DNA from: Thermodesulfobacteriota bacterium
Lineage (GTDB): Bacteria > Desulfobacterota_D > UBA1144 > Nemesobacterales > UBA2774
Direction: 5' to 3'
Assembly (NCBI GenBank): GCA_965223335.1
Contig: OZ244991.1
Location: 1,641,856 to 1,705,855, forward strand
Length of the DNA stretch: 64,000 nucleotides
Shown here: positions 16,855 through 34,339 of the stretch, piece after piece
Numbering within the stretch: position 1 is the stretch's first letter
Layout: each line of letters begins with the position of its first letter
The notes under the pieces: model-generated
What the model was told of the DNA's origin: nothing
The model's database searches: none
Seen by the model: the letters and a program-made list of their open reading frames with translations, nothing else
Translations under genes and position numbers: made by a program

Positions 16855-17337
16855 TTAGGGGTTCGGATTCGGTACAGTTATAGGTGGCTGAGTTGGAGGT
16901 GGCTGTGTAGGTATCGGCCGTGTGGGTGGTGGGCGTCTTGTCGGAGGCACGGGTGGATTAGTCGGTGGTAGAGGTGGGTTTGTAGGCGGTACGGGCGGGT
17001 TGGTGGGAGGATTGGGCGGATTCGTAGGGGGAGGTGCAGTTCGGAAATCATTTTGAGCATCCGGCGGTTCTTGATTGTACGGAGGCTCGGGGTCCGGGAC
17101 TCTTGGGATAGGTGCACGGAGCAGAATTTCCATAACATTTAGCAGATCAGGGTTATCGCGTACCGAATTTATCCTATCAATCGCACCCATATCGAGATCT
17201 ATCTGTTCGTCTGTGGTCCATGAGTTGTTTAAAGCTCCCGCTATCATATGCGGCGATGAAATAAGCAGCACTGCAATTATCATGAATAGCAACGATCTTA
17301 GCGGTTTTAATTTGTTCATTTTATTGAATACTTTCAT
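16855..17337 (-). CDS. Secreted proline-rich repeat protein (P-T-N-P-P-x-P-P tandem repeats)
   Basis: Signal peptide (LLFMIIAVLLISSPHMIAGA). The C-terminal half is almost pure PTNPPxPP/PTQPP repeats. The start is taken at the ATG at 17337; the track's first codon is GTG. The gene directly follows the TPR outer-membrane protein gene, with 1 nt between them. Confidence 0.6.
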   Translation of the reverse strand: MKVFNKMNKLKPLRSLLFMIIAVLLISSPHMIAGALNNSWTTDEQIDLDMGAIDRINSVRDNPDLLNVMEILLRAPIPRVPDPEPPYNQEPPDAQNDFRTAPPPTNPPNPPTNPPVPPTNPPLPPTNPPVPPTRRPPPTRPIPTQPPPTQPPITVPNPNP

Positions 17338-17344
17338 AACCACC

Positions 17345-18658
17345 TCAATAACTCAGGAATAATGACCATGTGATGATGTGACGGTCATATTCTAGCACTC
17401 TGTAAGTTGAGTCCTCGTTTGTAAAACTGTATGACATTGCCGCGTATATCGGTCCCGAGATATTACGTGTCAGCATCGCAAGGAAGTTGATCCTGTCGGT
17501 TTTCCTATCTCTTGGACCCTGGAAATCTGGGTATTTTTCTCTGCCGTACTCACCATTAATATCTGCTCTAATAGCCCAAAACAACGGTGCAGATATTCCG
17601 CCCCTTAACCTGTGGCCGTTAAAATTAAAGTTGAGTCCATCGGCGTTATTGTGCTGGAACTCGTACCCAAGCCACACATTTAGTGCACGCTCCATAAAAA
17701 AGAAGTACTGTAACAAACCAACACTGTTATTTACAGCATCACGTGACGAGATTGCGGGATCAAACCCCTCGTCCTCAAAATCATCATAGGCAAACCTGTA
17801 AAACGGTATTGTTAGGGTGTTGGGTGTGAACGCTGTATTTAGTGATGCGGTAATAGAGTGCGAGTTGCTAAACCTGTCATAATCGAGCAGTGCATAGTTA
17901 AAGTTATAGTTTAGTGTCGGGGAAAACGGTTTGCCGAATAGTGTGGTTGTGTAGTTAATGTATGGTGAAACGTTGAATGTAGATAGATTGAAATCTCTAA
18001 GTTCTCGTTTGGTATGTTGGCTCTGGTAGGTGTTGAAATTGGCACCCAGCACCCAATTCCCTAGGTTAGTGGTTCGTAACCCCAGGTTTAGGTACTCGGT
18101 GAACCTGAATGACTCGTCTTCGGTAAATGCCGCCCCACTGCCGTTTGGGTTTTCCGGCACATTGAAATCGAGTTGGGGTGCAATTTGTAGGAATACGTTA
18201 TAGAATCTGGGGCCACCGGGTCTCTCGAACTCGGTCTGCTGTTGTTCAATGGCCTCGACATACTTTCCTGCCCACTTCGCGTATAGAGATTCCGGGGCTA
18301 GCGTTTTTACCTTGTCAAAAAGCGCACGCGCCATATCGGTCTGGCTGATTTTGAAATATGTAGATGCCTTATAATAGATTATCGGTACGTTTTCGGGGTC
18401 TATCTTAAGCGCTTTATCATAAGTTTCGAGTGCCTTTTGATAGTTTTCCAGCCTGTGATAAGAAAGTCCGATATATCTTAATATTAGAGGGGCCTGGTCA
18501 GGGTATTGCTCAAGTAGAGTTGTGAATTCTGTTATCGCCTTATTATAATCACCGGATTTAAAGGCCTTCCCGGCTTCTGTATCTACTATATTAAGCTCTG
18601 CAAAAGCCGCGGGGGTAATCAGCGAGAGAATGAAAAATGTGTATATGAGTATCCGCAT
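17345..18658 (-). CDS. TPR-repeat outer-membrane beta-barrel protein
   Basis: Signal peptide MRILIYTFFILSLITPAAFA at an internal Met, so the track ORF is trimmed by 50 codons. Next come about 3 TPR motifs, then an aromatic- and Gly-rich region of alternating residues ending in ...WSLFLSY. A terminal aromatic residue is typical of outer-membrane barrels. Confidence 0.6.
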   Translation of the reverse strand: MRILIYTFFILSLITPAAFAELNIVDTEAGKAFKSGDYNKAITEFTTLLEQYPDQAPLILRYIGLSYHRLENYQKALETYDKALKIDPENVPIIYYKASTYFKISQTDMARALFDKVKTLAPESLYAKWAGKYVEAIEQQQTEFERPGGPRFYNVFLQIAPQLDFNVPENPNGSGAAFTEDESFRFTEYLNLGLRTTNLGNWVLGANFNTYQSQHTKRELRDFNLSTFNVSPYINYTTTLFGKPFSPTLNYNFNYALLDYDRFSNSHSITASLNTAFTPNTLTIPFYRFAYDDFEDEGFDPAISSRDAVNNSVGLLQYFFFMERALNVWLGYEFQHNNADGLNFNFNGHRLRGGISAPLFWAIRADINGEYGREKYPDFQGPRDRKTDRINFLAMLTRNISGPIYAAMSYSFTNEDSTYRVLEYDRHIITWSLFLSY

Positions 18659-18971: not shown

Positions 18972-19787
18972 CTATGAAAAGGCCTGATTTAATCTCTCAA
19001 TTTGCTCATCGGACAGGTGCCAGCCCGAGCCCCCGCAATTCTCAACAGTGCGCTCAACGCTGTTGGATTTCGGTATGGATACTACATTTGGATGGGAATT
19101 GCACCAGTTTAGAGAGACCTGTGCCATAGTCCTGCCAGTCTCTTTTGCAATGTCCTCAAGCACCTGCATTTTGCTGCTTACCCTGATTCGTGGTTTCTTG
19201 CAAAGCCGCCCGTCATCAAGGGGGGTATACGCGAGGATTGTTATGTTGCTCTTCTCGCAAAATGGTATTAAGTCTGTTTCTATGCCGCGGCTGTTTAGGT
19301 TGTAGAGGACCTGATTTGAGACTATCGGATGGTGGTTAAGATAGTGCATAGCGTTTAATAGTTCGTCTGTGTCGAAATTGCTCACACCCAGATATTTAAC
19401 CAGGCCCCGGTCGGCCAGTTTCTCTAAAGCTCGCATCGTATCCTGCAGAGGGTAGGTGTAATTGGGCCAGTGGATCTGATAGAGATCAATATAATCAGTA
19501 CCTAGTCGATACAAGCTGTCCTCGCATGCTCTCAATACATCATCATGTGCAAGGTGTCTGCCTGAGACCTTCGTTGCTAAAAACACGTCATCACGAATAC
19601 CTTTAATTGCTTCTCCTACCACGTCTTCAGTGTGATAACCCTCGGCAGTGTCTATGAGACTTGCACCCAGTTTTATCCCCTCTCTTAGAGTCTCTGCACC
19701 ACCCCGGTACCTCCATGTGCCGAGCCCGATCTCAGGGATCATAATCCCGGTATTACTTAGTTCTTTATGGTTCATCTCTGTACTCAT
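18972..19787 (-). CDS. Aldo/keto reductase family oxidoreductase
   Basis: AKR fold signatures (GLGTW, IDTAEGY, LGVSNF). Confidence 0.8.
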   Translation of the reverse strand: MSTEMNHKELSNTGIMIPEIGLGTWRYRGGAETLREGIKLGASLIDTAEGYHTEDVVGEAIKGIRDDVFLATKVSGRHLAHDDVLRACEDSLYRLGTDYIDLYQIHWPNYTYPLQDTMRALEKLADRGLVKYLGVSNFDTDELLNAMHYLNHHPIVSNQVLYNLNSRGIETDLIPFCEKSNITILAYTPLDDGRLCKKPRIRVSSKMQVLEDIAKETGRTMAQVSLNWCNSHPNVVSIPKSNSVERTVENCGGSGWHLSDEQIERLNQAFS

Positions 19788-19868: not shown

Positions 19869-19903
19869 AAAAACGGGGCTGTCTGTGAATTTAGACAACC
19901 CCG
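19869..19903 (-). terminator. Rho-independent terminator after the choice-of-anchor-Q gene
   Basis: 11-bp stem CGGGGCTGTCT/AGACAACCCCG with one mismatch and an 8-nt loop, followed on the minus strand by a TTTTT run. It starts 13 nt after the stop codon. Confidence 0.6.
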
Positions 19904-19915
19904 TATAGTCTCATT

Positions 19916-21223
19916 TTATGCTTCAATTTCATTTCTCCTCATCAGTCTTCTAGTTAATATCAAAGCAGGAATTAGAAGATAGAGAGGAAAAGCTGTAGAG
20001 GTTGTATTGGTTGCCAGTGAACATCCACCGCCACTTTCGCTTACGGCACCAAATACGTGCTCAACGGCACCCATATCACAGATCGAAAACCCATTACCGT
20101 CCCCGTCCTGCGGCCTTGCGGTGCCTCTTTGGTCGGTCCCGTTACATTCTGCCGGGTTATCGGCGCTATCAATAGCAGGGCTCCCTTCCAGTATCCCGTG
20201 TGTCATAGTGGGGCCGCCGTTATCTGCAAGTATGCCGATCATTGGGTTTGTGTTGGGCATATCAGTCGGGTCTATGAGGTTGCATAAAGTTGTGGAAATA
20301 TTGTTTCCATCCGACTGGATAAATATTCCACCGCAATCACTTGTGATGTTATTGGCAATTATACTACCCCATACTGAAGTCATACTTCCAGCTGCCTGAT
20401 AGATACCTCCGGCTGAACCAGATACGGTTATGTTAGATGCAATCGTTGTAAACTTTATGTCGAGCTCGGAGTCGTTATAAATTCCACCACCTAGGTCGGT
20501 TGCAGCGTTATTGCTTATAGTGACGTTCCTAAGTGTTAGAGCCCCACGGTTGTAAATACCGCCTCCCCTCTCATCACCAGGGTCTCCGGCAGTAATATTG
20601 TTGTCGATCACTGATTCAACAATTGTCCCTTCGGCATCAGGGCCGATATATATGCCTGCGCCTCTGGGAGCCATATTGCCTGTAATTGCTACCGTCTCGA
20701 GTACCACAATTTCAGCTGCATTTCTTATGGCACCACCGGCATTTCCCGAGTTGGCATTCGTGATCGTTAGGTCATAGAACTCAACCGTAATTTGATTTAA
20801 ACCATCACCATCTAAAAGATGGAAGATCTGCTTGGAGCCGTTTCCGTCGATAATCGTGGACTTAGTGCCTGATCCTTGGATAATGAGGTCATCTCTTATA
20901 TCCAGATCACCAACTGCTGCGAAGTTGTCCCCGCCCTCTAGTGTAAGGACATACGTCCCAGCGGGTATTGCTATCGTATCCTGACCCGCAAGATCGTTTG
21001 TTTCCATCACCGCAGCACGAAGTGTGCAGTTCCCGGCCCCGTCGTCACAAAGTGTATCACCCGGTGTATCATCGGGTGTGTCAATGTTGCTGTTTACAAC
21101 AAACATCACAGCATGTGAATGAGTTGCTCCTATCATCACTGATAGAGCAAATACTAAAAGCAACATGCCTCGTGCTATGTGCGAAGCATCAAAATCTTTA
21201 ATGCTCTCGAATAAGTTAATCAT
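19916..21223 (-). CDS. Secreted right-handed beta-helix protein with a choice-of-anchor-Q-like domain and a C-terminal sorting/anchor-like tail
   Basis: Start at MINLFESIK, RBS AAGGAGG. The track's upstream Met would contain the promoter motif. The protein has a signal peptide and a Gly/Asn-rich region of NxTxxxN beta-helix-like repeats. Its C-terminal block (LADNGGPT..GSPAID..C..TDQRG..RPQDGDGNG..CDMGAVE) matches what I recall of the choice-of-anchor Q domain. The tail is GGGC, a hydrophobic helix, then RRLMRR. Confidence 0.6.
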   Translation of the reverse strand: MINLFESIKDFDASHIARGMLLLVFALSVMIGATHSHAVMFVVNSNIDTPDDTPGDTLCDDGAGNCTLRAAVMETNDLAGQDTIAIPAGTYVLTLEGGDNFAAVGDLDIRDDLIIQGSGTKSTIIDGNGSKQIFHLLDGDGLNQITVEFYDLTITNANSGNAGGAIRNAAEIVVLETVAITGNMAPRGAGIYIGPDAEGTIVESVIDNNITAGDPGDERGGGIYNRGALTLRNVTISNNAATDLGGGIYNDSELDIKFTTIASNITVSGSAGGIYQAAGSMTSVWGSIIANNITSDCGGIFIQSDGNNISTTLCNLIDPTDMPNTNPMIGILADNGGPTMTHGILEGSPAIDSADNPAECNGTDQRGTARPQDGDGNGFSICDMGAVEHVFGAVSESGGGCSLATNTTSTAFPLYLLIPALILTRRLMRRNEIEA

Positions 21224-21259
21224 GGTTAATTCCTCCTTTAAAGCAAGTTTGAATGGTGA

Positions 21260-21285
21260 GTAACAATATGCGAGGTAAAGGTTCA
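21260..21285 (-). promoter_or_regulatory. ECF-type promoter TTGAACC-N15-GTTACTCAC (gene sense) for the CoA-Q beta-helix gene
   Basis: One of five copies of the same motif with identical spacing. Its -10 lies 36 nt upstream of the ATG. Confidence 0.6.
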
Positions 21286-21307
21286 ATATGTAACATATAT
21301 AATATAT

Positions 21308-21342
21308 AAAAAGCCCCTGGAGCTTTCATACTCCAAGGGCTT
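21308..21342 (-). terminator. Rho-independent terminator after the Cys-rich exoprotein gene
   Basis: 12-bp stem AAGCCCCTGGAG/CTCCAAGGGCTT with one mismatch and an 8-nt loop, followed on the minus strand by TTTTTATATA. Confidence 0.6.
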
Positions 21343-21379
21343 CTCTGTAAAGTCGAGTCTAACTTAAGGACTGTATTAA

Positions 21380-22216
21380 TTATGTTTCAGGTTTGTAAGG
21401 TGGGTTGGTCAACACACATTTTACCTTTGTTGTGGGTTTAACCTTACCGCTGTACTGTTTCGTGTTGCTGGTGCCGTTATAAACACAACTCGCGTTGAAT
21501 CTAACCAAGTCTACAGTAGTCGGCTGAAGTTGTATTGTGGCTTCTTTCTTGTAATCGCCGTTTCCCTTAGTCAGTGCATCTTTACACTGTTTCTCCACAG
21601 TGTTTAAACTCCATGGTTTAATCATAACGTTTTTATTGATGTGATCTTCAGTGTAGTTGCCTGTCGGGAATACAGCCTTAGGACCATTGGCCGTAGAGAT
21701 CTCAAAGTGCTTAATGCTTTGGTTCTCACCACACTGGAGTTTAGCGTTCCACTTTGTCTTCTCTTTTAAGTTTTTAGAAGCAAGTTTCATCACTGTGTAC
21801 TCATGACCGTTATGAGACTCGGATTTGAGTTTCATAGGCACTGTGCCATGAAGACCGTTCATCTGATAGATTGATGCTCCGCCGTGGCTTGGGAACGGGT
21901 TGGATGTATACCCGCTCTGTGAACTCTGATGTTTAGGTTTAACCAAAACAGCTTTCTTGGCCACAGGCTTTGTGGATTTTCTGCTACTCTTGATACGCTT
22001 TGGTGTAGTAGAAGAATCGGAGTTGTCTACGCCGTTGGTTGTGTAACCATAGTGGTCGCAGCAGTTAACCCATTTCCCATCAACCTTACAGAGTGCCAGT
22101 ATATCGTAAGGGCAACTCGCAAAGCTGTTGTTTGTACCCAATCCTAAAAACATAAATACCGCTAATGCTACTACTGAAAATACTTTCATGCTTTCAAATC
22201 TACTTAGATTAATCAT
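21380..22216 (-). CDS. Secreted Cys- and Lys-rich hypothetical protein (278 aa)
   Basis: Start at MINLSRFESMK after an AAGGAGG RBS, followed by a signal peptide. The mature protein has about 10 Cys, many Lys and no recognisable domain. Confidence 0.55.
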   Translation of the reverse strand: MINLSRFESMKVFSVVALAVFMFLGLGTNNSFASCPYDILALCKVDGKWVNCCDHYGYTTNGVDNSDSSTTPKRIKSSRKSTKPVAKKAVLVKPKHQSSQSGYTSNPFPSHGGASIYQMNGLHGTVPMKLKSESHNGHEYTVMKLASKNLKEKTKWNAKLQCGENQSIKHFEISTANGPKAVFPTGNYTEDHINKNVMIKPWSLNTVEKQCKDALTKGNGDYKKEATIQLQPTTVDLVRFNASCVYNGTSNTKQYSGKVKPTTKVKCVLTNPPYKPET

Positions 22217-22252
22217 GGTTAATTCCTCCTTGAAATCGTATTTGTACAGTGT

Positions 22253-22278
22253 GTAACAACAAAGGCGTAGATGGTTCA
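22253..22278 (-). promoter_or_regulatory. ECF-type promoter TTGAACC-N15-GTTACACAC for the Cys-rich exoprotein gene
   Basis: Second copy of the motif. Its 5' UTR and first codons are nucleotide-level homologous to those of the CoA-Q gene. Confidence 0.6.
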
Positions 22279-22353
22279 AAAAAATGATGATTAACCTAGA
22301 TAGAGTTACATAAGACCTTGCTTTCAAGACTGTGCCATAGATCAATACAAGAA

Positions 22354-22430: not shown

Positions 22431-22991
22431 TCACTTGTTTTTGTTTGCTAATAGTGACTTTCTATTGTCGTTTGAATCACAATCACCCTTAACCTTTACT
22501 CGTAACGCGAATGGCACATTATTTAATTCATTGGATTCGACTACCTCTTGGTTACTGTCTAATTTGATAACTACCTTTTGCTTCCCTGTTTCCAATGCTA
22601 TCGTGTTGTGAGTATTTATAACTTCGTCTGTGTCCAGACCTGAATAAGATTCCACCCTAGACCACGAACCGACGTTTATTCTGTATTCAAAACTATCACT
22701 TGAAGACTCTCCACGATTACTAATTTGTATCTGATAAGGAAAGACACATCTTCCATTAACCGAGTGTATAGCATCTTCTGCTCTCAATTGAATTGAACTT
22801 CCCCACTCACCAACAGTGTCTGCTATTCTAATGGAGTCTGAGCTTGTTATATCTGGCAGTTCGCTATTAATGCTACTTACCTCGTAATATTCCAAATCAT
22901 CAGCGAGTGTTTTACTGCCCATGACTTGTAGAGAGACTATTATTAAGAGAACTGTTAAAAATGTAATGTTTTGAGTGCTTAACCTTTTCAT
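22431..22991 (-). CDS. Small secreted CARDB-like (cell-adhesion-related) domain protein
   Basis: Signal peptide. The C-terminal ...VVESNELNNV... resembles the ESNExNN signature that closes CARDB domains. 186 aa. Confidence 0.45.
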   Translation of the reverse strand: MKRLSTQNITFLTVLLIIVSLQVMGSKTLADDLEYYEVSSINSELPDITSSDSIRIADTVGEWGSSIQLRAEDAIHSVNGRCVFPYQIQISNRGESSSDSFEYRINVGSWSRVESYSGLDTDEVINTHNTIALETGKQKVVIKLDSNQEVVESNELNNVPFALRVKVKGDCDSNDNRKSLLANKNK

Positions 22992-23024: not shown

Positions 23025-23050
23025 GTAACGCGGGAGGTGGAAAAGGTTCA
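23025..23050 (-). promoter_or_regulatory. ECF-type promoter TTGAACC-N15-GTTACTTAC for the CARDB-like gene
   Basis: Third copy of the motif. Its -10 lies about 30 nt upstream of the ATG at 22991. Confidence 0.6.
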
Positions 23051-23105: not shown

Positions 23106-26100
23106 CTAGTTGGTGTTATTTAGTGAGAATGTGGAGTTGGTCAAGAAATCTGTTTTGATCCCAAGCAGGTTATATCCGCTTGGATCACCATTTGACCACA
23201 GCAATAGAGGTTCGCTACCTAGTGGCAGTGGGTCGCCTATGCTTAGCGGGCAAGATAATGTGCCTGCATCAAGCAGATCCATTCCGCCTACTGCTTGACC
23301 GAACAGTGTTTGTTTGAACTCTGCATAGTCGTCCCCTGAATCGTTGCTGATGAAATCATAGATGTGAGCAAAGTCCGGTTGTATAAGTCTAACACCTACT
23401 CTTACGTAGTTGCTCGCATGCTTGTTCAACCATTCATGATTCGGTATGCAGACAGGGTTCTGTAGAGGTTTACAGTCTGGTGCTACAGCGCCGATAGCCG
23501 ATTTGCAGGCATCATTAGGTTCTATTACATGGTACACAGCCAAGCCCGAGTCGTTGATGTTATAGTCGTAGAGAGGTGTGTTGATCGAGTTTTCTTGGAT
23601 TCTGGTCTCGAGCAGCACATATTCCAGCCCGTCATCATACCTGCGTGGGAGTATGTAGACCTTCTCACTCTGCTTCACATCACTCAGATCGTATTTATCA
23701 TTTTCCTCGATGACATGAGGTGTGACCCATCCAAGGTGTAGCTTGTGGAACCCATGAAGGTGAGGTGTTGCAAGGTCCTTACCGGTTTTAAATGTCATAA
23801 GCGATATCATATGAGGTGCAGTGTTCATATATCTGTTCTGACAGGTCTCACCCGGTGCCAGGTCCTCTTCGTCCGGGCAATCACTCATAAAGCTAGGTAG
23901 CGCAGAAAACTGTACTCCGTCATGCAGTCCTTTGTATCTTCCATACGCGTCATCGAGGCCTAGCCAATGGTGTGCAAGTTCGTGTGCGGCAACCATCATA
24001 TTCTGGATCTTGTCCGACTGATCAAGAGGTTCGGCTTTAAATATTAGGTTTAGGTGAACTGTCTCTGTAATCCTCACACCGTCCACACTCAGTGTTTCAT
24101 TATCTTCGTCACAGAAAGGTGCAAAGCTTGTCTTAATTGACGAGCCGGCGTTCCCACTCCTTGGGATGGCAACAATAATTCCCAATTCATCTGGCGTGAT
24201 CATTTCATCTTTATTTCTGTCATAGGATTTGAAGTCAATCATACCTTCGGCAAATTTGAGCGCTTCAGCATGAAGGGCATCAGAGCCTGATCCATAGGTA
24301 GCACCGTTTTCACAGTCAAAGTTCTCACTATCGAGATAATAGTTTTTATCGTTTGTGATTTGACCTGCGTTTGCAGCTGTGAAAATCCCGAGTGTGCCGG
24401 CTTTGTTAACCTGGAACCTGCCGCCTGAGTTGAGCATAAAATAGTCTTTTACACTCTGGAACCCGCCGTGCAGGAAGTCATCAACATCCACAAAGAACAT
24501 GGTGTCTGCAGGTGAATCTTCGATCTGGGGATCGATTATGATGGTGAGGAGCTCGCGGGATCCATATATAGGTTCTATTATGGACTCGTATTTCTTAGAA
24601 GCTCTTCCCATATTAGGTCCTTCTGCCAGGTCCGGGCCTATGCGGAGTTTTTTCTCGACTACCAGGTTAGCATCGTTGATATAGCCAGCAGGTGGAGTTG
24701 TAACACCGGCTTGCGTTACTCGGTATGCAACTCCTACTTCATAACCGCCTGCTTTAGGTGATAGCTCCTTGATACCAAATGTGTAACTGCCGCCGCCAGC
24801 ATGATTTACCTGTGGTTTAGTGTCGCCAGGGTTTTGGAATGTCAGTGTCGGGTAGTGGATGATTACTTCTTGATCCATTAGCGGGAAGCCGTCCAATGTA
24901 GGCACTATGAATATAGTCCCCTCTCCTGCGAATGCTCCGCTTAGTGTTACTGCTATATCCGATACTTCATTCACTTCAACATGTGTCGACAGATTAGCAA
25001 CCGGTGTGGTATGGCTCTCTGTGGAGCTTGTAAGCTCGGTCTGCGATACAACATCAAAAAAGTTGTCTTTGGAATTGTTCTCTTCTGTTTGTACTAACAC
25101 AGTCCATGCAGAAATTGTTCCTTTTGCCACAACATCAGTCTCGCTGCCTCTCCACTCGAACTTTACGTTATGCATTCCCTCTGGGAGGTCTTCTGCATTA
25201 AATACCACGCTTCTTGCCTCGGTATGATAGAGTCTTCCCGCCAATGCAATCTCTTTGGGATAGACCTCTTCGGCACCGTTATCAATTATCGCGCGGAGCA
25301 TAATGAAATCACCCTGCTCCATGCTTATGACGGATGAGAATGTAATAGCGGTTTCCGAGCCTTTAGGTACGTAGAAATTTATGTCGGCATTAGGCACGGG
25401 CGTCCAGTTCTTGGTCCCGATCTTAAGCTGTTCGGGTTCACCGTCGCCAGTGATGCCTTTTCCGGTTTTAACCTTAATCGAAGCGTTTCTGATGTAGGAA
25501 CTGCCGTTTGTTACATGCTCTGTTGAGTACTGTACCTGTACCGTGTGTATGCCTCTGTCTACCTCTGTTAAAAAGGTGAATGATTGACTCGGGGCCACAA
25601 GTACCTGGTCCATCCCGCCAGTAAGTGTGATCGGACCTGGGAGTGCCTCAACACCGTCTACGAGTACCCTTATTTGCAGGGGTTCATCTGTGGTGTCCGA
25701 TACATATGACATTGCCGAGAATGTAATCGCAGCTACGGTGTTATTTTCATTTACTACAAATTTGCTTGCGGCTCTCGGTAGATCTATAAACCCGTCACTG
25801 CCCTTTGGGAGTTTAATGAATTGATCAACCATCACTGGGAATTCCGGTGTGCCGCCGTCAACACATATTGTTTCTTTCTCGCCAGCATACGAGTATTTCT
25901 TGGTTTTACAGCCGATATGAGTTTCCGACCTGATCTGCATGCTGTCAGGTTCATTGCCATCGAACTCATACGGATTAGGTAAGAATCCGCCCGGACCTGG
26001 GCGGTTTACGCTTGATGATTTTTTCTGAGCCTCTGCGCTCACTGAAAACATAAGTACAACTACTAGAAGCACAAGCAACTGTAATATTTGCCTGCTTGTT

Positions 26101-26138
26101 CCTTGTTTGGATTTATTGTTGAGTGTAAGTCTTAACAT
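23106..26138 (-). CDS. Large secreted zinc metalloprotease, M6 (InhA)-like, about 1010 aa
   Basis: Start at ATG 26138, 6 nt after AGGAGG. The track ORF begins at an upstream TTG. Signal peptide present. HELAHHWLGLDDAYG matches the M6-family HExxHxxGxxDxY zinc-site pattern. The protein has long beta-rich N- and C-terminal extensions. Confidence 0.6.
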   Translation of the reverse strand: MLRLTLNNKSKQGTSRQILQLLVLLVVVLMFSVSAEAQKKSSSVNRPGPGGFLPNPYEFDGNEPDSMQIRSETHIGCKTKKYSYAGEKETICVDGGTPEFPVMVDQFIKLPKGSDGFIDLPRAASKFVVNENNTVAAITFSAMSYVSDTTDEPLQIRVLVDGVEALPGPITLTGGMDQVLVAPSQSFTFLTEVDRGIHTVQVQYSTEHVTNGSSYIRNASIKVKTGKGITGDGEPEQLKIGTKNWTPVPNADINFYVPKGSETAITFSSVISMEQGDFIMLRAIIDNGAEEVYPKEIALAGRLYHTEARSVVFNAEDLPEGMHNVKFEWRGSETDVVAKGTISAWTVLVQTEENNSKDNFFDVVSQTELTSSTESHTTPVANLSTHVEVNEVSDIAVTLSGAFAGEGTIFIVPTLDGFPLMDQEVIIHYPTLTFQNPGDTKPQVNHAGGGSYTFGIKELSPKAGGYEVGVAYRVTQAGVTTPPAGYINDANLVVEKKLRIGPDLAEGPNMGRASKKYESIIEPIYGSRELLTIIIDPQIEDSPADTMFFVDVDDFLHGGFQSVKDYFMLNSGGRFQVNKAGTLGIFTAANAGQITNDKNYYLDSENFDCENGATYGSGSDALHAEALKFAEGMIDFKSYDRNKDEMITPDELGIIVAIPRSGNAGSSIKTSFAPFCDEDNETLSVDGVRITETVHLNLIFKAEPLDQSDKIQNMMVAAHELAHHWLGLDDAYGRYKGLHDGVQFSALPSFMSDCPDEEDLAPGETCQNRYMNTAPHMISLMTFKTGKDLATPHLHGFHKLHLGWVTPHVIEENDKYDLSDVKQSEKVYILPRRYDDGLEYVLLETRIQENSINTPLYDYNINDSGLAVYHVIEPNDACKSAIGAVAPDCKPLQNPVCIPNHEWLNKHASNYVRVGVRLIQPDFAHIYDFISNDSGDDYAEFKQTLFGQAVGGMDLLDAGTLSCPLSIGDPLPLGSEPLLLWSNGDPSGYNLLGIKTDFLTNSTFSLNNTN

Positions 26139-26171
26139 TTTATTCCTCCTCAATGTTTGTTTGATAGGTAA

Positions 26172-26197
26172 GTAACACGAGGAGGTAAAATGGTTCA
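26172..26197 (-). promoter_or_regulatory. ECF-type promoter CTGAACC-N15-GTTACTTAC for the M6-like metalloprotease gene
   Basis: Fourth copy of the motif, about 35 nt upstream of the ATG. Confidence 0.6.
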
Positions 26198-26298: not shown

Positions 26299-28023
26299 TC
26301 AGTTGGCTCTGGCTTCTTCGGTGCCTTCATTTAATAAGTTCAATGCACCCAAAGCGTCTATTCTGCCTTTACCGTATTCGTTATCCTTTCCGGGTTTACC
26401 CAAGTCAAGCGCACTTTGCGTAAGGAGGTATTTAACCTCAGTCGAGGTGAGAGCCGGGTTTTGCTGCAGAAGTAGTGCAATAGCACCTGTGACGTGGGCT
26501 GCCGCCATAGAAGTGCCCGAGGTTAGATGCCACTTATTACCTGGTGCAGGGCAGTAGATCTCCACCCCAGGTGCCGAGAGATCTATGTATGATCCTCTGG
26601 TCGATGAACGGTATAGATTATCTTTGGCATCCGTCGCAGTCACAGCTATGACTTCTCCCAAAGCCGCCGGATACACAGTCTTACCATTCTTACCACCATT
26701 ACCCGCAGCGGCTACAACAATGACTCCTTTTTCTACCGCTTTCCTGATCATTTTAGCGATTAGATGATCTTTCGGGCCGCCAAGGCTGAGGTTTATAACC
26801 TGAGCACTGTTTAAGATCGAATAATCAATTGATTTTGCAAGTGAAGTACTGCTGCAAATTGTATTTTTAGCCTCTGTTGAGTCTGACCAGCATGCCCTCA
26901 CGGAAATGATATCAACATCGGGTGATATGCCGAGTGCACCTGTACCGTTGTTAGGAGTAGATGCAATAATCCCGGCGATTGATGTGCCGTGCAGTTCATC
27001 TGTAAAACTCCCGTTGCCTTTGTCCACAAAATCCCTTCTCAGTTTTACCGCATTACTGAGTGCACTGTGATTATAATCTACACCGGTATCAATGACGGCC
27101 ACTCTTACCCCGTTTCCTGTCGAAATTCTGTGAGCCTTATCGGCGTTGATCTTATTCACACCATACTGGATTGAACTGGTTGCGAGCCCTTCGTATAGAT
27201 ACACAGGCTGGGTCGCTAACACACGAGCATCATCAATAAGTGAGGTAATCACAACCGGGACTGTTCTAGAATCCGGGATGTTATATACGACTAGCACAGC
27301 ATTGATGCTGTTTAATCTATAAGCTTCCCTTAGAGTCAGCTCATTTTTACTTCCTATTTCAGTTGCTGTGCTCCGAGCATTCGGGCTGTCTTCTATAAGT
27401 ATCAATACCTGATCGGGTATATAACCGTCCTTTGCTATTCCGGACAAAGTTTCGGGGGTCGGATCCTTAAACACGGGGGCGGTGAGTTGTTCCTGCTCTA
27501 TAACAGGCTCAATCAAAGTTGGGTCGTCCGGCAATTGAGTAGGTGATGTAAACTGGGGATCAGGGACTACGGGATTAATCCCCGAGGTCGGGTCGGGGTC
27601 AGAAGACCCAGGTTGATTACTCGGGGTTTCAGGCTCAGGTACCGGGGGTAGGGGGTTTGTGGGTTGAGTGGTGTCAGGATTCCTGGGAGGCTTCGGGTTG
27701 TCAGGTCTCGGGGGCTTAGGTTCATTCGGAGGAAGCACAATATCTTGGCTCGGAAGATTCGGTATTGTCGGTGGTTTGTTCGGGGGTTGAGGATATGTAG
27801 GCCCCGAATTGCTAGGGTTTCGGTTAGGATTAGGTTTCGGCGGTGTAGGCAGGTCATCACCCACATTAGGACTATAGCTGCTAGGGTATCGTGGTATTGG
27901 CTTTGATGAGTTGGACTGAGCAACCACAATAGCCTCTGCAGTTAAATTCAAGGCGAGCGCATTTGAATAACCGCTCAGAGCTATTAAAAGTGCTGCCGTT
28001 ACAGTTGCTGTGATAGCTCTCAT
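26299..28023 (-). CDS. Secreted S8 subtilisin-like serine protease with a roughly 120-aa proline-rich N-terminal region
   Basis: Signal peptide, catalytic triad motifs VAVIDTGVD (Asp), HGTSIAGII (His) and GTSMAAAHVTG (Ser), and a PxxP-rich low-complexity N-terminal region. It sits 35 nt downstream of the anti-sigma gene with no promoter motif between them. Confidence 0.85.
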   Translation of the reverse strand: MRAITATVTAALLIALSGYSNALALNLTAEAIVVAQSNSSKPIPRYPSSYSPNVGDDLPTPPKPNPNRNPSNSGPTYPQPPNKPPTIPNLPSQDIVLPPNEPKPPRPDNPKPPRNPDTTQPTNPLPPVPEPETPSNQPGSSDPDPTSGINPVVPDPQFTSPTQLPDDPTLIEPVIEQEQLTAPVFKDPTPETLSGIAKDGYIPDQVLILIEDSPNARSTATEIGSKNELTLREAYRLNSINAVLVVYNIPDSRTVPVVITSLIDDARVLATQPVYLYEGLATSSIQYGVNKINADKAHRISTGNGVRVAVIDTGVDYNHSALSNAVKLRRDFVDKGNGSFTDELHGTSIAGIIASTPNNGTGALGISPDVDIISVRACWSDSTEAKNTICSSTSLAKSIDYSILNSAQVINLSLGGPKDHLIAKMIRKAVEKGVIVVAAAGNGGKNGKTVYPAALGEVIAVTATDAKDNLYRSSTRGSYIDLSAPGVEIYCPAPGNKWHLTSGTSMAAAHVTGAIALLLQQNPALTSTEVKYLLTQSALDLGKPGKDNEYGKGRIDALGALNLLNEGTEEARAN

Positions 28024-28058: not shown

Positions 28059-28751
28059 TTAATAGCCCTCAGTGGCTGATTTAATTATTTCGGTATTCGC
28101 ACTAAGTTCTTGAATGGTATCGGCTGCTTGCTCGTCAGGTTCTAGCTCTATTACATATAAACCACCCGCTTTCGGTCCATCCACAATTTTTCCCCTGATT
28201 TCCTCAAGCACCTCTCCTATAGCTTCTATGCTAGCGTCTTCTTGAAACACAACCAACAACTTTGGCCCGGCAGTTTGCACTAGCTCTGTATCTCCGCTTA
28301 AGACCTTGTAATCATTGGTCTCCTCGGGTGTGCCGAAGTAAAGTTTGCCTGCAAGCAGAGCGATCAACCCAAACTGCACAAGCAGTATGGCCATGGCCCC
28401 TGCGGGTATTGCGGTGGGTAATGATATAGCCGGCATCAAGTTTTTTATACTTGACCAAATGGTTTCGGTTTCTTCATCTCTGGCGTAGCTGACATCGGTG
28501 TCTGTTTCTTCGATCCTCTGCATAATGCTTTCTTCCATATTCTCGAACTCGGCAGATATCTCTTTATCCACAAGCTCATTGGTTTCCATAACTGCTTCCC
28601 TTATAACCTCGAGTCCTATGATCTCAGAGCTGCACTCTTCGCATTCGTGGATGTGCTCTGTAACAAGTGCTTTTTCTTCTGTGTCCAATGTACCGTTTAG
28701 GTACCATGGCAAAAGCAGGCTGATCTCTTCATGTGTAGTATTGTTGGTCAT
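28059..28751 (-). CDS. Anti-sigma factor, ZAS-type (zf-HC2, HxxxCxxC), single-pass membrane protein
   Basis: EHIHECEEC motif near the N-terminus, one TM helix (AGAMAILLVQFGLIALLAGKL) and a C-terminal extracytoplasmic domain. Its ATG overlaps the sigma-factor stop (ATGA). Confidence 0.7.
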   Translation of the reverse strand: MTNNTTHEEISLLLPWYLNGTLDTEEKALVTEHIHECEECSSEIIGLEVIREAVMETNELVDKEISAEFENMEESIMQRIEETDTDVSYARDEETETIWSSIKNLMPAISLPTAIPAGAMAILLVQFGLIALLAGKLYFGTPEETNDYKVLSGDTELVQTAGPKLLVVFQEDASIEAIGEVLEEIRGKIVDGPKAGGLYVIELEPDEQAADTIQELSANTEIIKSATEGY

Positions 28752-29338
28752 TGCAGTGTCTCCTCTGTGGTTATTCCCAATCCTGTAAGTTTTTCTTTCA
28801 ATTTTTCTTTTGCGTAATACATTCGGGTCTTCACAGTGTTTACAGGGCAGTCCATTATCTCGGCAATTTCAGGGTATGATAGCCCCTCATAGAATGTAAG
28901 CTCGAGTACCGTCCTGTGTTCGGGGGAAAGTTGTTCCAGAGCTATTTTCATGCGCTCTGCTCTATCTTTTTTCTCCACGATTTCCTCCACGTTATCTTCC
29001 GACGCAGGGATCCGTGAAAACTCCTCGGGGTCCATTGCAGTCGGCGATTTTTTTCTCAGTTCGTTCATTGTTTTGTTGTGTGCTATACCGAAAATCCATG
29101 TAAGCACCTTTGATTTCCCTTTAAAGTTTTTGGCACTGTTCCAGACCTCAAACATTACATCGTTTGTGATCTCTTCGGTCATTTTGTTGTCTTTTGTTGT
29201 CTTATAAACAAACGAAAAGACCTGCCGAACGTATTTTTGATAAAGGGTTTTAAACGCCTCTTTATTGCCGTTTGCGATTTCCTCTATCAGTTCCAAATCC
29301 GAAGGTTCCAAAACCCTCTCCATTATCTCTGGCCTCAC
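28748..29338 (-). CDS. ECF (group 4) sigma-70 family RNA polymerase sigma factor
   Basis: A 196-aa protein with sigma region 2 (FKTLYQKYVRQVFSFVYK..) and region 4 (LEQLSPEHRTVLELTFYEGLSYPEIAEIM). It is translationally coupled to the anti-sigma gene. Confidence 0.85.
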   Translation of the reverse strand: MRPEIMERVLEPSDLELIEEIANGNKEAFKTLYQKYVRQVFSFVYKTTKDNKMTEEITNDVMFEVWNSAKNFKGKSKVLTWIFGIAHNKTMNELRKKSPTAMDPEEFSRIPASEDNVEEIVEKKDRAERMKIALEQLSPEHRTVLELTFYEGLSYPEIAEIMDCPVNTVKTRMYYAKEKLKEKLTGLGITTEETLQ

Positions 29339-29359: not shown

Positions 29360-29385
29360 GTAACACCGAGTACACAGATGGTTCA
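29360..29385 (-). promoter_or_regulatory. Autoregulatory ECF-type promoter TTGAACC-N15-GTTACTAAC upstream of the ECF sigma gene
   Basis: Fifth copy of the motif, 21 nt upstream of the sigma ATG. An extra TTCGAAC half-site lies just upstream of the -35. Confidence 0.6.
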
Positions 29386-30805: not shown

Positions 30806-31912
30806 ATGAACGCATCCAAGCCAGAAAACAATCGAAATACCGAATCACTAGAGACTCTGCTGGATAGGGTAAAAAAAGAGGTGCGCGAGCTAAGTGCTTA
30901 CAATGTACCCCACATCGACTGCAGTGTTAAGCTCGACGGGAACGAGAGCCCCTATGGGATGCCCAAAGAGATTGTTGAGAAAGTGGATGCTCTGCTCTCT
31001 CAAATAGAAATAAACAGGTATCCCGATGCTAACTGCACTCAGTTAAAAGAAAAATTATCTAGACTCGTAAACTTTCCTACTGATGGAATCATCTTTGGGA
31101 ATGGGTCCGATGAGCTGATAGGGATGTTAATTACAACGTTCTGCGGCAGATCCGGGATTGTGACTATCCCCACACCGACTTTCTCAATGTATAGCCTTAC
31201 CTCAAAAGCGCTCGGAATGAAAACCTCGGAGATCCCTCTTGATGACAAGTTTGATCTCGATCTTGCTGCGATGCTCGAAGATATTCAAACAAACGACCCG
31301 GATTTAATATTCCTAGCAAGCCCCAATAACCCAAGCGGCAACATTTTTTCGGCGGAAAAGATTCTAGAAATCATAAAGGCTTCGGGGGGGATAGTGGTTG
31401 TAGACGAGGCTTATGCAGAGTTTGCAGGGCAAGACTTTTTATCCAGAGTCCGGGAGCATGATAACCTCATTGTGCTAAGGACGTTCTCAAAAGTAGGTTA
31501 TGCTGGGATTCGTCTCGGGATGCTCTTTGCCAATGAAATCCTAGTCCATGAGATTAACAAAGTGCGCTACCCCTACAACATCAATTCGCTCAGCCAAGCC
31601 GTGGGTGCTGCAGTATTCGAGAACTACAGCTATTTGTCTGATGTAATTGAATGCATAGTAGAGGAGAAGCAACGGGTTTTTGAATCGCTCAGAGCCATGG
31701 ATGGTATAACAGCTTATAGGAGCGACGCCAACTTTATTATGTTTAAGGTAGGTGATGCCGATAAGCTCTGGTCCGACCTTGTAGAGAGCGATGTATTGAT
31801 ACGAAATTTCAATAAGCCCGGGCGGTTAAGTAACTGTATGCGGGTTACTATCGGGACGAAAGAGGAAAACGATAAGTTTTTAGAAGCCATAGGGAGATCT
31901 CTTCCTTCGTAA
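30806..31912 (+). CDS. hisC: Histidinol-phosphate aminotransferase (class II PLP enzyme)
   Basis: PLP-dependent aminotransferase fold with the KVGYAG lysine region. It is adjacent to hisD. Confidence 0.85.
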   Translation: MNASKPENNRNTESLETLLDRVKKEVRELSAYNVPHIDCSVKLDGNESPYGMPKEIVEKVDALLSQIEINRYPDANCTQLKEKLSRLVNFPTDGIIFGNGSDELIGMLITTFCGRSGIVTIPTPTFSMYSLTSKALGMKTSEIPLDDKFDLDLAAMLEDIQTNDPDLIFLASPNNPSGNIFSAEKILEIIKASGGIVVVDEAYAEFAGQDFLSRVREHDNLIVLRTFSKVGYAGIRLGMLFANEILVHEINKVRYPYNINSLSQAVGAAVFENYSYLSDVIECIVEEKQRVFESLRAMDGITAYRSDANFIMFKVGDADKLWSDLVESDVLIRNFNKPGRLSNCMRVTIGTKEENDKFLEAIGRSLPS

Positions 31913-33451: not shown

Positions 33452-33562
33452 TGGAGACTAAATGTACCTCTGCCTAACTGCGATTAAAAGGTTAGGATTT
33501 GAAGTATAGTTAGTAAGAATTGATATTGATCTGGAGTAATTATTCTAGATACCGCTATTTAT

Positions 33563-34339
33563 TTAAGCTTTTTTGACCTCGGAAGAGGGCTTTGCTTCGG
33601 GGCGTAATGTGTAGAGTTTTATTACCCCGACTGCGATAATGGTGATTGCCATCAGCTGTGCAATAGAGAGGTTTGGTATGGGGCTTGGTGTAGTGTTTCT
33701 GACAAATTCGATTACAAAACGCTCTAACCCTGCCAGAACTAGATACAGTGAGAAAAGCCATCCGGTCGGTTTATCCATTTTGCGCAGTTTCCATATAAGT
33801 ACGAATACTGCAAACATAATTAAAATTTCATAAATTTGAGTTGGGTGTACTGTGTCGGTGGTGGGGGGAAGTCCCCTAGGGAAGGCCACAGCCCAAGGTA
33901 GGTCCGACGGTATACCGTAGTCATCGCCCACCAGAAAACAGCCCATCCGCCCTATCACATAACCCATGGCCAATGACGGTGTAGCGGTGTCGCCTATCTT
34001 CCAGAAATTGAGTTTATACCGCCGTCCCAGCAACCACACCAAGAGTATCGCACCTATGAAACCTCCGTAAAACGTGAGCCCGCCACGAGATAACAGGTGT
34101 GTTGCAGGGTGTCTTAGTATTTCTCCGATCGGCACGTTCTCAAAAAGGTAGAGCAGCTTGGCCCCTACGATCCCACCCACCATGGCCGCCAAAAATAGGT
34201 TGCCTATCTGTGTCTCGTCGATCCCTTTGCGCTTTGCTTCCTTTGTGATAAGCCAGTAACCGACCACAAAGCTCAGCGCCACCATCACACCAAACGATGA
34301 TATGCTGAAGTTGCCTAATTTGATGAGTTCCGGATACAT
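33563..34339 (-). CDS. lgt: Prolipoprotein diacylglyceryl transferase
   Basis: Lgt signature (GRMGCFLVGDDYG) and a 7-TM topology. Confidence 0.9.
   Translation of the reverse strand: MYPELIKLGNFSISSFGVMVALSFVVGYWLITKEAKRKGIDETQIGNLFLAAMVGGIVGAKLLYLFENVPIGEILRHPATHLLSRGGLTFYGGFIGAILLVWLLGRRYKLNFWKIGDTATPSLAMGYVIGRMGCFLVGDDYGIPSDLPWAVAFPRGLPPTTDTVHPTQIYEILIMFAVFVLIWKLRKMDKPTGWLFSLYLVLAGLERFVIEFVRNTTPSPIPNLSIAQLMAITIIAVGVIKLYTLRPEAKPSSEVKKA

Follow-up and report, generated by a model that had tools for sequence, protein, structure and literature searches.

Locus and domain architecture

The target gene lies at positions 19916..21223 of the 64-kb stretch of DNA analysed here (the window), on the minus strand like all other genes and features located below, and encodes a protein of 435 amino acid residues. 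The reading frame named in the initial annotation is present in the ORF list, and an identical protein (P0001) is encoded on a 2.67-Mb contig. The true start is the ATG at 21223, preceded at a distance of 8 nt by a ribosome binding site read from the sequence (AAAGGAGG, 21232..21239). A longer ORF with a TTG start at 21286 was rejected because both the promoter motif described below and the ribosome binding site fall within the extension.

The N-terminus (approximately residues 1–38; 21110..21223) reads as a Sec-type signal peptide without a lipobox, for which we infer a cleavage site in GATHSHA/V; in the AF2 model this region forms two helices (residues 2–9 and 13–32) ahead of the β-helix. 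It is followed by a CSLREA-like N-terminal cap (CDDGAGNCTLRAAV, 21008..21103). The cap contains the motif CTLRAA, in agreement with the pattern C-[ST]-L-R-[EA]-A, and scores 16.6 bits with TIGR04214 against a cutoff of 25; orthologs of the target carry the source annotation "CSLREA domain protein". The body of the protein is a right-handed parallel β-helix with PMP-like GGGIYN repeats (20249..21007), modelled as a strand ladder with pLDDT >90 and matched weakly by Chlam_PMP. Residues 326–388 (20060..20248) constitute a choice-of-anchor Q domain. The initial annotation had proposed this domain from the motifs LADNGGPT, GSPAID, TDQRG, RPQDGDGNG and CDMGAVE, all of which occur in the translation, and the NCBIfam model NF041518 (choice_anch_Q) identifies the protein as a full member with 71.5 bits (E 4.9e-20), well above the cutoff of 25.

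The AF2 model as a whole (mean pLDDT 86.3) comprises the β-helix, a disordered linker holding C401 and a terminal helix. The closest solved fold to the passenger in the PDB is Rhombotarget A (9cdv/9cdu; E 1.5e-8, TM 0.56). This likeness is at the level of the fold only, the score with the Rhombotarget A equivalog TIGR04212 being 36.8 bits against a cutoff of 295. Besides C401 the passenger holds six cysteines, three of them invariant (C66, C297 and C314) and three present in at least 90% of the sequences (C59, C360 and C382). Their conservation suggests three pairs, with C401 left unpaired. As a protein the target is ordinary and is already annotated by present pipelines as a choice-of-anchor Q/CSLREA β-helix protein.

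Gene cluster and ECF regulon

An exact ECF-type promoter motif, TGAACC-N15-GTTAC, precedes the target (21260..21285). The window holds five exact sites where 0.08 would be expected, each of them upstream of a cluster gene, and the motif also precedes the target orthologs in the loci L001 and L081. A terminator-like hairpin is located directly 3' of the target stop codon (19873..19904). A second one (21308..21345) ends the upstream gene, and the target therefore looks monocistronic.

The upstream gene encodes a secreted protein of 278 amino acid residues (21380..22216; promoter motif at 22253-22278) that had no match in Pfam or NCBIfam and was not assigned to a family; its leader of 71 nt shares 75% identity with that of the target. 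Further upstream lie the genes for a secreted CARDB-domain protein (22431..22991, 27.2 bits; promoter motif at 23025-23050), a 1015-aa M6-like metalloprotease with the motif HELAHH (23106..26153; TIGR03296, 79 bits against a cutoff of 110.8; promoter motif at 26172-26197) and a secreted S8 subtilase (26299..28023; Peptidase_S8, 176.7 bits), where the gene order is kept in L001, L081 and L082. The cluster continues with an anti-sigma factor (28059..28751; zf-HC2, 32.1 bits), whose C-terminal domain resembles a subtilase propeptide (Fervidolysin_NPro-like, 21.2 bits against a cutoff of 21), and an ECF sigma factor (28748..29338; Pfam Sigma70_ECF and NCBIfam sigma70-ECF). The sigma factor gene is preceded by the same motif (29360-29385), which predicts autoregulation. 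As judged from its promoter sequence, the target is a member of a conserved ECF-sigma regulon.

Anatomy of the C-terminal tail

The C-terminus of the target reads SESGGGC(401)-SLATNTTSTA-FPLYLLIPALILT-RRLMRR-NEIEA, and its last 38 residues form the tail domain. This domain consists of a Gly/Ser-rich signature (GGGC-S-[LIV]-A), about eight small residues, a Pro-bearing hydrophobic segment and an Arg cluster. The signature G398-G-G-C401-S402 (20018..20032), in which G-C-S never varies among 19 ortholog tails, is situated in the disordered linker (pLDDT <50 at residues 394–411). The hydrophobic segment A411-FPLYLLIPALIL-T424 (19952..19993) includes Pro413 and Pro419 and corresponds to the family consensus [ILF]PLYLLIP[VA][FL]ILI; a helix is modelled at residues 414–434. 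About 22 hydrophobic residues had been counted originally; the truly hydrophobic part comprises 13–14 residues and follows a small polar spacer of about ten. The basic cluster RRLMRR (residues 425–430; 19934..19951) is predicted to be cytoplasmic because of the positive-inside rule.

The consensus of 125 aligned tails is GGGCS[LIV]A...PLYLLIP..ILIRR.WRR. The Cys occurs in all 125. Positions +12 and +18 are most often occupied by Pro (56/125 and 75/125), position +25 by Arg (93/125) and positions +28, +29 and +31 by Arg or Lys. Position +9 is mostly occupied by S, P, T or N and position +10 by S; Asp is not among the common residues there.

Conservation and distribution of the tail

All 20 orthologs of the target, at 50–56% identity, keep the tail pattern GCS...P..Y...R..R. 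The initial annotation had suggested looking for other proteins of the genome that share the tail; across sequence collections, such proteins exist in number. A word-indexed search with the tail profile yielded just eight short fragments, and an exhaustive profile search of 1.84 billion representatives retrieved 121 protein clusters at E<=1e-3, of which 117 carry the matching stretch at their very C-terminal end. The passengers are unrelated to each other and include choice_anch_Q (27), YVTN (20), NHL (17), DUF11 (10) and choice_anch_I (8) domains besides TSP3, thaumatin, CARDB and VWA. A strict DNA pattern for the tail was found in 16 GTDB species genomes, all of them MAGs of Candidatus Dadabacteria or Thermodesulfobacteriota. 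Up to three tail genes occur per MAG or contig, in tandem in L024 and L042, and one MAG holds three strict matches. On this strict pattern in the GTDB species genomes, the tail family is, at the sequence level, conserved and restricted to Dadabacteria. In two divergent ORFs, the tail is located between the passenger and an autotransporter β-domain.

The tail thus shows features of a Cys-type signal, namely a position at the C-terminal end, a signal-peptide-like N-terminus in the target, the Cys and unrelated passengers. These features bear on the second option of the initial annotation, a plain membrane anchor. Such a tail would remain uncleaved in the inner membrane, with the protein facing the periplasm and the Cys serving another purpose, for instance a disulfide or metal contact. 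The hydrophobic segment and the Arg cluster would suffice as a stop-transfer anchor, and the outcome of the enzyme search reported below is in line with it. Nonetheless, we regard this explanation as unlikely because, within a single lineage, the Cys-bearing tail ends over 100 protein clusters whose adhesin-like and propeller passengers are unrelated. A plain anchor would also leave unexplained the Cys that every aligned tail has in the motif GGGCS[LIV]A and the conserved prolines, and the three predicted pairs among the six other cysteines would leave no partner for C401.

Affiliation with curated sorting signals

A comparison with the NCBIfam sorting-domain HMMs, as proposed initially, yielded weak matches to JDVT-CTERM, M36 and Synerg-CTERM models, but the target tail scores below the cutoff in every model. 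The values were 13.3–13.5 bits for JDVT-CTERM, 9.6 bits for the myxosortase-dependent M36 tail and 6.4–7.9 bits for Synerg-CTERM (TIGR04564, cutoff 22.5 bits), with no others; in particular, MYXO-CTERM (TIGR03901, cutoff 20 bits) gave no match to the target tail at E<=10. Among the 19 ortholog tails, MYXO-CTERM matched 12 weakly (best E 3.3e-4), JDVT-CTERM 11, Synerg-CTERM three and GlyGly-CTERM one, also weakly (E 0.18). Consensus-type tails reached 14.7–19.9 bits with TIGR03901; with NF033191 (JDVT-CTERM, cutoff 27 bits), eight of ten scored 11–24 bits and two had no match. Across the family, the JDVT model matched 11 of 124 members at E<=0.01 (best 1.4e-10), and one member passes the cutoff of TIGR03382, a model of the MYXO-CTERM class. 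[quoted passage not shown]

The weak matches thus go to the MYXO-, JDVT- and Synerg-CTERM models and not to the GlyGly-CTERM or exosortase-type signals to which the tail had first been likened. Assignments to GlyGly-, PEP- and IPTL-CTERM were rejected because of the HMM results, none of these models matching the target at E<=10, and the position of the motifs. A divergent GlyGly-CTERM, in which a rhombosortase encoded elsewhere would cut after the Gly run and join the new C-terminus to a lipid containing glycerophosphoethanolamine, as happens to VesB and Rhombotarget A, could be argued from the Gly-rich signature GGG, the single ortholog match and the fold of the passenger with its weak TIGR04212 score. 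The likeness of the passenger, however, tells nothing of the anchor, since it is the very pairing with different tails that defines choice-of-anchor domains. The target lacks a match to TIGR03501 even at E<=10, the Cys present in all aligned tails is absent from GlyGly-CTERM, and no rhomboid motif was detected in the window or in 84 loci around tail genes. We consider this derivation very unlikely.

Closer still to refutation is an exosortase-type or IPTL-CTERM-type signal. The sequence IPAL in the tail, which had been compared with IPTL, is a coincidental likeness because the IPTL-CTERM motif precedes the transmembrane segment whereas the Pro of the target is inside the hydrophobic segment. 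The tail contains no PEP motif, as stated initially, and neither PEP-CTERM (TIGR02595) nor IPTL-CTERM matched it. Genuine IPTL-CTERM proteins (VPTMSQWG..., IPTLSEWG...) are encoded on related Dadabacteria contigs and are distinct from proteins with the Cys tail. They might be taken to favour such a signal, but the two tail types coexist as separate entities on the same contigs. The guess in the initial annotation that the tail might be an unclassified sorting signal was correct. The tail is modular and lacks defining features of each named family. By analogy, it may be a variant, peculiar to this lineage, of the Cys-type signals that CPBP proteases ("myxosortases") process, with the enzyme itself postulated.

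Search for a processing enzyme and the neighbouring TPR-barrel protein

In accordance with the initial annotation, no rhomboid-, CPBP-, exosortase- or sortase-like ORF was found in the 64 kb of the window, where all ORFs with multiple transmembrane segments could be assigned (MreD, RodA, Cox subunits, CtaA/B, Lnt, Lgt, YdjM and MFS). The 84 loci around tail genes, about 0.55 Mb, were scanned for ORFs with several transmembrane segments and for the motifs of CPBP proteases (EExxxR, EE..FRG) and rhomboids, and revealed no CPBP or other intramembrane protease. The sole motif match (L008, 2349-4415) was discarded, as its sequence looks like that of a membrane-anchored alkaline-phosphatase-family protein. 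All four known Cys-type signals are paired with CPBP enzymes, and housekeeping myxosortases are encoded away from their clients (Haft 2023; bioRxiv 10.1101/2023.06.07.544157). MrtX has been shown to cleave MYXO-CTERM in a Cys-dependent manner, also in E. coli (Guo, Haft and Wall 2025; PMC11980579).

A neighbouring gene (17345..18658) encodes an outer-membrane protein with an N-terminal TPR region and a 14-strand β-barrel (AF2 mean pLDDT 88.3), and in three related genomes the TPR-barrel gene is located directly 3' of the target ortholog. The solved structures closest to the barrel protein in fold are OmpG, CymA and BcsC. Membership in the Slam family was rejected: TPR_Slam (PF24575) scored 24.7 bits against a cutoff of 35.2 amid generic TPR cross-matches, the PF04575 barrel did not match the protein and is recorded for only one distant homolog, and the 50 top-ranking folds from the PDB did not include a Slam structure. 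The architecture alone fits.

This barrel raises the question whether the tail is read by an adjacent outer-membrane partner, or by an enzyme class new to C-terminal sorting, and not by a CPBP protease at all. The conserved position of the barrel gene, the two divergent ORFs with an autotransporter β-domain and the outcome of the CPBP search around tail genes would agree with this, but most tail genes in the 84 loci are without an adjacent barrel gene. Housekeeping sorting enzymes are, moreover, normally non-adjacent to their clients (Haft 2023), and all similarity to curated models leads to myxosortase-type signals. Such a reader is quite improbable in our assessment.

Proposed model and significance

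The reading we prefer, with a probability of about 0.6, joins an exported β-helix protein, a Cys-type tail, cleavage by a CPBP protease, lipid anchoring and ECF-driven transcription. The target would accordingly encode a Sec-exported right-handed β-helix surface protein with a CSLREA-like cap and a choice-of-anchor Q cap. Once exported, it would be retained in the inner membrane by its hydrophobic segment and Arg cluster. A lipid would be attached to Cys401, and a housekeeping protease of the CPBP family (PF02517; Rce1-like, myxosortase-type), encoded elsewhere in the genome, would cut just after the Cys. The lipid-anchored β-helix would then be moved to the outer membrane or the cell surface. 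The neighbouring ECF sigma factor is predicted to drive transcription of the target via TGAACC-N15-GTTAC, which is common to four other cluster genes. For the tail, this mechanism is drawn by analogy from the MYXO-, JDVT- and Synerg-type systems (Haft 2023; Guo, Haft and Wall 2025), from which we infer the lipidation, cleavage and surface location of the target.

A wider proposal, to which we give somewhat less than even odds, is that Dadabacteria use a fifth, lineage-specific Cys-type signal, GGGCS[LIV]A-x8-PLYLLIP...RR.WRR, together with a myxosortase-like CPBP protease of their own, and that surface delivery may be coupled to dedicated outer-membrane barrels, either the adjacent TPR plus 14-strand protein or an autotransporter β-domain fused behind the tail, and not to type II secretion.

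The uncultured Dadabacteria are frequent in samples of marine, sponge and subsurface origin; to our knowledge, their cell surface is wholly uncharacterized. Our literature search found no paper tying this group to sorting by a C-terminal tag. Such tags delimit the surface protein set of the lineage that uses them, and with every newly recognized tag a sorting enzyme dedicated to it has come to light. The tail described here provides a sequence handle for the Dadabacteria surface proteome, which would include β-helix adhesin-like, β-propeller, TSP3 and DUF11 proteins, and a clear query for finding the enzyme by phylogenetic profiling. With it, one more class-level lineage would join those that use Cys-type signals of the myxosortase kind, and the ECF-sigma regulon around the target offers a testable regulatory context.

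Comparison with known systems

Among the described systems, MYXO-CTERM with MrtX, MrtC and MrtP (TIGR03901 and TIGR03382; Myxococcota and Bradymonadales) is likewise tripartite, with a Cys in a Gly-rich signature and a similar length. It also occurs in many copies per genome on unrelated surface passengers, with the sorting enzyme not adjacent; a MrtX-like enzyme for the Dadabacteria tail was not found in the window or the 84 loci. The two signals differ in the signature, which is GCGC in MYXO-CTERM and always contains a single Cys in the Dadabacteria tail, and in the transmembrane segment, which is without Pro or charge in MYXO-CTERM but has two conserved prolines here. Furthermore, MYXO-CTERM is restricted to Myxococcota and Bradymonadales, whereas the genome matches of the tail are all Dadabacteria/Thermodesulfobacteriota.

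JDVT-CTERM with MrtJ (NF033191 and NF033192; Pseudomonadota), whose model gives the target tail its highest score (13.3 bits), also has a single Cys and a Pro at a fixed distance inside or before the transmembrane segment. Its near-invariant Asp-Pro is, however, located at +9/+10, in contrast to S-[ILF]-P at +10 to +12 in the Dadabacteria tail. JDVT-CTERM typically has one client per genome and an adjacent CPBP gene (16 of 17 cases); Dadabacteria have several clients, and none of the 84 tail loci holds such a gene. Synerg-CTERM with MrtS (TIGR04564; Synergistota) shares a signature that is rich in Ser and Gly and closes with a single Cys, as well as a conserved Pro in a Leu-rich transmembrane segment, but is shorter (27 aa) and, as is CGP-CTERM, without a spacer between the Cys and the transmembrane segment. 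The Dadabacteria tail, with its spacer of about ten residues, scores only 6–10 bits with the Synerg model.

GlyGly-CTERM as in Rhombotarget A (TIGR03501 and TIGR04212; 9CDV) resembles the target in the CSLREA-type N-cap (putative in the target), the β-helix and the Gly-rich start of the tail; there the Gly-Gly abuts the transmembrane segment directly and a conserved Cys is lacking, while the Dadabacteria tail has one. IPTL-CTERM (TIGR04174/PF18203) carries IPTL[SG]EWG before the transmembrane segment, a motif with no counterpart in the target, where IPAL lies inside the hydrophobic segment. The Slam/type XI systems (TPR plus a 14-strand DUF560 barrel) have the same architecture as the neighbouring barrel protein, which is likewise encoded next to a putative surface cargo. 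Known Slam cargo is N-terminally lipidated, in contrast to the target, whose signal peptide is without a lipobox. Lastly, the choice-of-anchor Q proteins (NF041518) place their domain between the β-helix and a C-terminal anchor, exactly as in the target. Relatives bear other anchors such as dockerin, DUF11 or CFI-box-CTERM, and it is only the anchor that is unusual in the target.

Target protein and its gene

The 435-aa target is encoded at 19916..21223 on the minus strand (ORF list); its true start is the ATG at 21223, with AAAGGAGG 8 nt 5' of it. A longer TTG-started frame was rejected, since the promoter motif falls within that extension. Terminator-like hairpins flank the gene on the minus strand (21345-21308 and 19904-19873), and a 2,667,483-bp contig carries an identical protein. 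A 71-nt leader (promoter, RBS and first codons, MINL) is present twice with 75% identity, at 21216-21286 before the target and at 22209-22279 before the upstream gene for a 278-aa protein.

The choice-of-anchor Q domain proposed in the initial annotation was recovered at residues 326-388 as a match to NCBIfam NF041518 (71.5 bits, cutoff 25). NCBIfam matches to CSLREA_Nterm (16.6 bits, cutoff 25) and rhombotarget A (36.8 bits, cutoff 295) were sub-threshold, and Pfam returned only a weak Chlamydia PMP repeat. In the AlphaFold model (49 homologs as input, mean pLDDT 86.3), an N-terminal helix representing the signal peptide precedes a right-handed beta-helix (approximately residues 40 to 345), the choice-of-anchor Q cap, a disordered linker (394-411) containing Cys401 and a terminal helix (414-434). 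Among solved structures the fold comes nearest to Rhombotarget A (9CDV/9CDU; E 1.5e-8, TM 0.56); pectate-lyase-like beta-helices rank next. As a surface protein the target is unremarkable, a beta-helix of the choice-of-anchor Q/CSLREA kind. Because the ORF, NCBIfam and AlphaFold results agree, the earlier description of the sequence is confirmed; the tail features it listed are present, but the hydrophobic core comprises about 13-14 residues, not about 22, and follows a small polar spacer of about 10 residues.

The C-terminal tail

The tail, consisting of a GGGC signature, spacer, hydrophobic segment and Arg cluster, is kept in all 20 target orthologs (50-56% identity; source MAGs labelled Thermodesulfobacteriota). 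In these, G-C-S never varies, and A, Y and two R almost never do. In an exhaustive search of 1.84 billion representative proteins for others sharing the tail, a profile from 19 tails matched 121 clusters (E<=0.001; protein length 49 to 1096 aa), reaching the C-terminus in 117. The consensus is GGGC-S-[LIV]-A-x2-G-x3-S-[ILF]-P-L-Y-L-L-I-P-[VA]-[FL]-I-L-I-R-R-x-W-R-R. All 125 aligned tails contain the Cys; counted from it, positions +12 and +18 are most often Pro (56/125 and 75/125) and +25 is most often Arg (93/125).

The passengers of the tail are mutually unrelated. Among 124 proteins scanned were choice-of-anchor Q (27), YVTN beta-propeller (20), NHL (17), DUF11 (10) and choice-of-anchor I (8) domains, besides thrombospondin type 3, thaumatin and CARDB. 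Such a range of passengers marks a protein-sorting domain and not a chance membrane anchor. Between the two options offered earlier, the unrelated passengers and more than 100 clusters favour an unclassified sorting signal over a plain C-terminal anchor; that the terminal helix and Arg cluster form an uncleaved anchor is unlikely.

Two divergent tail proteins, P0220 (locus L083, 1032-4322) and P0237 (L084, 3234-5999), are single ORFs with a common layout: passenger (beta-helix or VWA), internal Cys tail with Arg cluster, second signal-peptide-like segment (...VQAQ) and a full terminal autotransporter beta-domain (PF03797, ~200 bits). Both resemble a split autotransporter encoded in a single frame.

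A DNA pattern encoding G-C-[STA]-[LIVMF]-A-x8-P-[LIVMF]-Y-[LF]-[LF]-x-P matched 16 places in 185,579 species (one genome each), all in MAGs named Candidatus Dadabacteria, Thermodesulfobacteriota, Desulfobacterota or delta proteobacterium; Dadabacteria are a class within Thermodesulfobacteriota per NCBI. This strict pattern occurred three times in one MAG and twice in another, and matched 57 contigs of JGI metagenomes, several twice. Thus the signal is confined to this lineage and present in multiple copies. One copy lies in the window, and a looser protein regex detected tandem tail genes, up to three, in loci L024 and L042.

IPTL-CTERM-type tails were also seen on Dadabacteria contigs with Cys tails (L001 18660-19016, minus strand; L050; L059; L081 645-1019 and 15643-15990). 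These genuine examples read VPTMSQWG... or IPTLSEWG..., followed by a TM segment and RRKK. Given both tail types on the same contigs, Dadabacteria seem to have two separate systems for C-terminal sorting.

Regulon and gene neighbourhood

The window contains five sites of the motif TGAACC-N15-GTTAC where 0.08 would be expected; every one is on the minus strand, just upstream of a minus-strand gene: the ECF sigma factor gene (28748..29338; site 29360-29385), those for a 1015-aa M6-like protein (23106..26153; 26172-26197), a CARDB protein (22431..22991; 23025-23050) and the 278-aa protein (21380..22216; 22253-22278), and the target (site 21260-21285). Equivalent positions are occupied by seven sites in ortholog locus L001 (0.02 expected) and five in L081. 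Loci L001, L081 and L082 share the gene order sigma, anti-sigma, S8 subtilase, ~1011 aa, CARDB, ~275 aa, target, TPR outer-membrane protein and Pro-rich protein. Shared motif and kept order together place the target in a conserved regulon of secreted proteins under ECF-sigma control; this regulon looks autoregulated, as the motif also precedes the sigma gene.

The anti-sigma factor (zf-HC2; 28059-28751, minus strand) has a C-terminal Fervidolysin_NPro-like domain (21.2 bits, cutoff 21) resembling a subtilase propeptide, and the next gene encodes the S8 subtilase (26299-28023, minus strand), a hint that this protease could control sigma release.

The TPR outer-membrane protein (17345-18658, minus strand) was modelled by AlphaFold (mean pLDDT 88.3) as an N-terminal TPR domain with a 14-strand beta-barrel. 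The modelled architecture is that of Slam/T11SS (type XI secretion) proteins, but Slam Pfam models were sub-threshold or absent. In three related genomes its gene comes immediately after the target ortholog, the two adjoining in L001, L081 and L082; in this genome only, an aldo/keto reductase gene (18972-19787, minus strand) separates them. The gene for the secreted Pro-rich protein (PPTNPPxPPTNPP repeat; 16855-17343, minus strand) keeps its place after the TPR-barrel gene in the same three loci. That such a barrel-dependent route, or an enzyme of another class, handles the tail is quite unlikely.

Sorting enzyme and proposed mechanism

Rhomboid, CPBP, exosortase and sortase genes were absent from the 64-kb window, as the initial annotation had it for sorting enzymes: every multi-TM ORF has another identity (MreD, RodA, cytochrome oxidase subunits, CtaA/B, Lnt, Lgt, YdjM, MFS transporter). 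Nor were any found in 84 loci (~0.55 Mb) fetched around tail genes, which were checked with Pfam listings and motif scans and by inspecting the multi-TM ORFs. A housekeeping sorting enzyme that serves many clients is expected not to be encoded beside them (Haft, bioRxiv 10.1101/2023.06.07.544157); the absence fits such an enzyme, though it is not positive evidence for one.

By analogy with the known Cys-type signals, we infer a CPBP protease as the probable processing enzyme. In the most likely mechanism, taken jointly (probability about 0.6), the target would be exported via Sec, retained in the inner membrane, lipidated at Cys401, cleaved by a CPBP protease encoded elsewhere in the genome and moved to the cell surface.

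Lgt lies within ~3-13 kb of Cys-tail genes on three contigs (window 31880-34339, minus strand; L024 1805-2608; L042 7048-7851), and in the window so does Lnt (31880-34339, minus strand). This proximity is probably just synteny, but may be of interest for the enzyme that lipidates the Cys of such tails.

Comparison with known sorting signals

The target tail alone had three NCBIfam matches, all sub-threshold: JDVT-CTERM (13.3 bits, cutoff 27), the MYXO-CTERM end of the myxosortase-dependent M36 peptidase model (9.6 bits) and Synerg-CTERM (6-8 bits). The resemblance to GlyGly-CTERM, exosortase or IPTL signals noted initially did not hold, the GlyGly-, PEP- and IPTL-CTERM models being silent at E<=10. 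Among 19 ortholog tails, MYXO-CTERM matched 12 (best E 3.3e-4), JDVT-CTERM 11, Synerg-CTERM 3 and GlyGly-CTERM one (E 0.18). Processing by a rhombosortase is very unlikely, and by an exosortase or IPTL-type system most improbable. JDVT-CTERM matched 11/124 tail-family members at E<=0.01 (best 1.4e-10). With ten consensus-type tails, it matched eight (11-24 bits) and MYXO-CTERM four (15-20 bits); one of the ten scored above the TIGR03382 cutoff, set for an older model of the MYXO-CTERM class.

JDVT-CTERM, MYXO-CTERM and Synerg-CTERM are Cys-containing tripartite signals, each paired with a CPBP/Rce1-like glutamic intramembrane protease; the enzymes for Cys signals are MrtX/C/P, MrtJ, MrtS and MrtA (Haft, bioRxiv 10.1101/2023.06.07.544157). 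The MYXO-CTERM of TraA is cut by MrtX in a Cys-dependent manner, also in E. coli (Guo, Haft and Wall, PMC11980579). GCGC is frequent in MYXO-CTERM, which lacks Pro, whereas the Dadabacteria tail carries one Cys only and its hydrophobic segment contains two prolines. Where JDVT-CTERM has Asp-Pro it has S-[ILF]-P, and unlike JDVT-CTERM it is multi-copy and without an adjacent protease; in contrast to Synerg-CTERM it has a spacer and greater length. As it misses defining features of each named family, we file the tail outside all four, although it probably works like myxosortase-type signals. The anchor, the noteworthy part of the protein, is best read as a variant of cysteine-type C-terminal sorting signals that is restricted to Dadabacteria and that curated models, at their set cutoffs, still miss.
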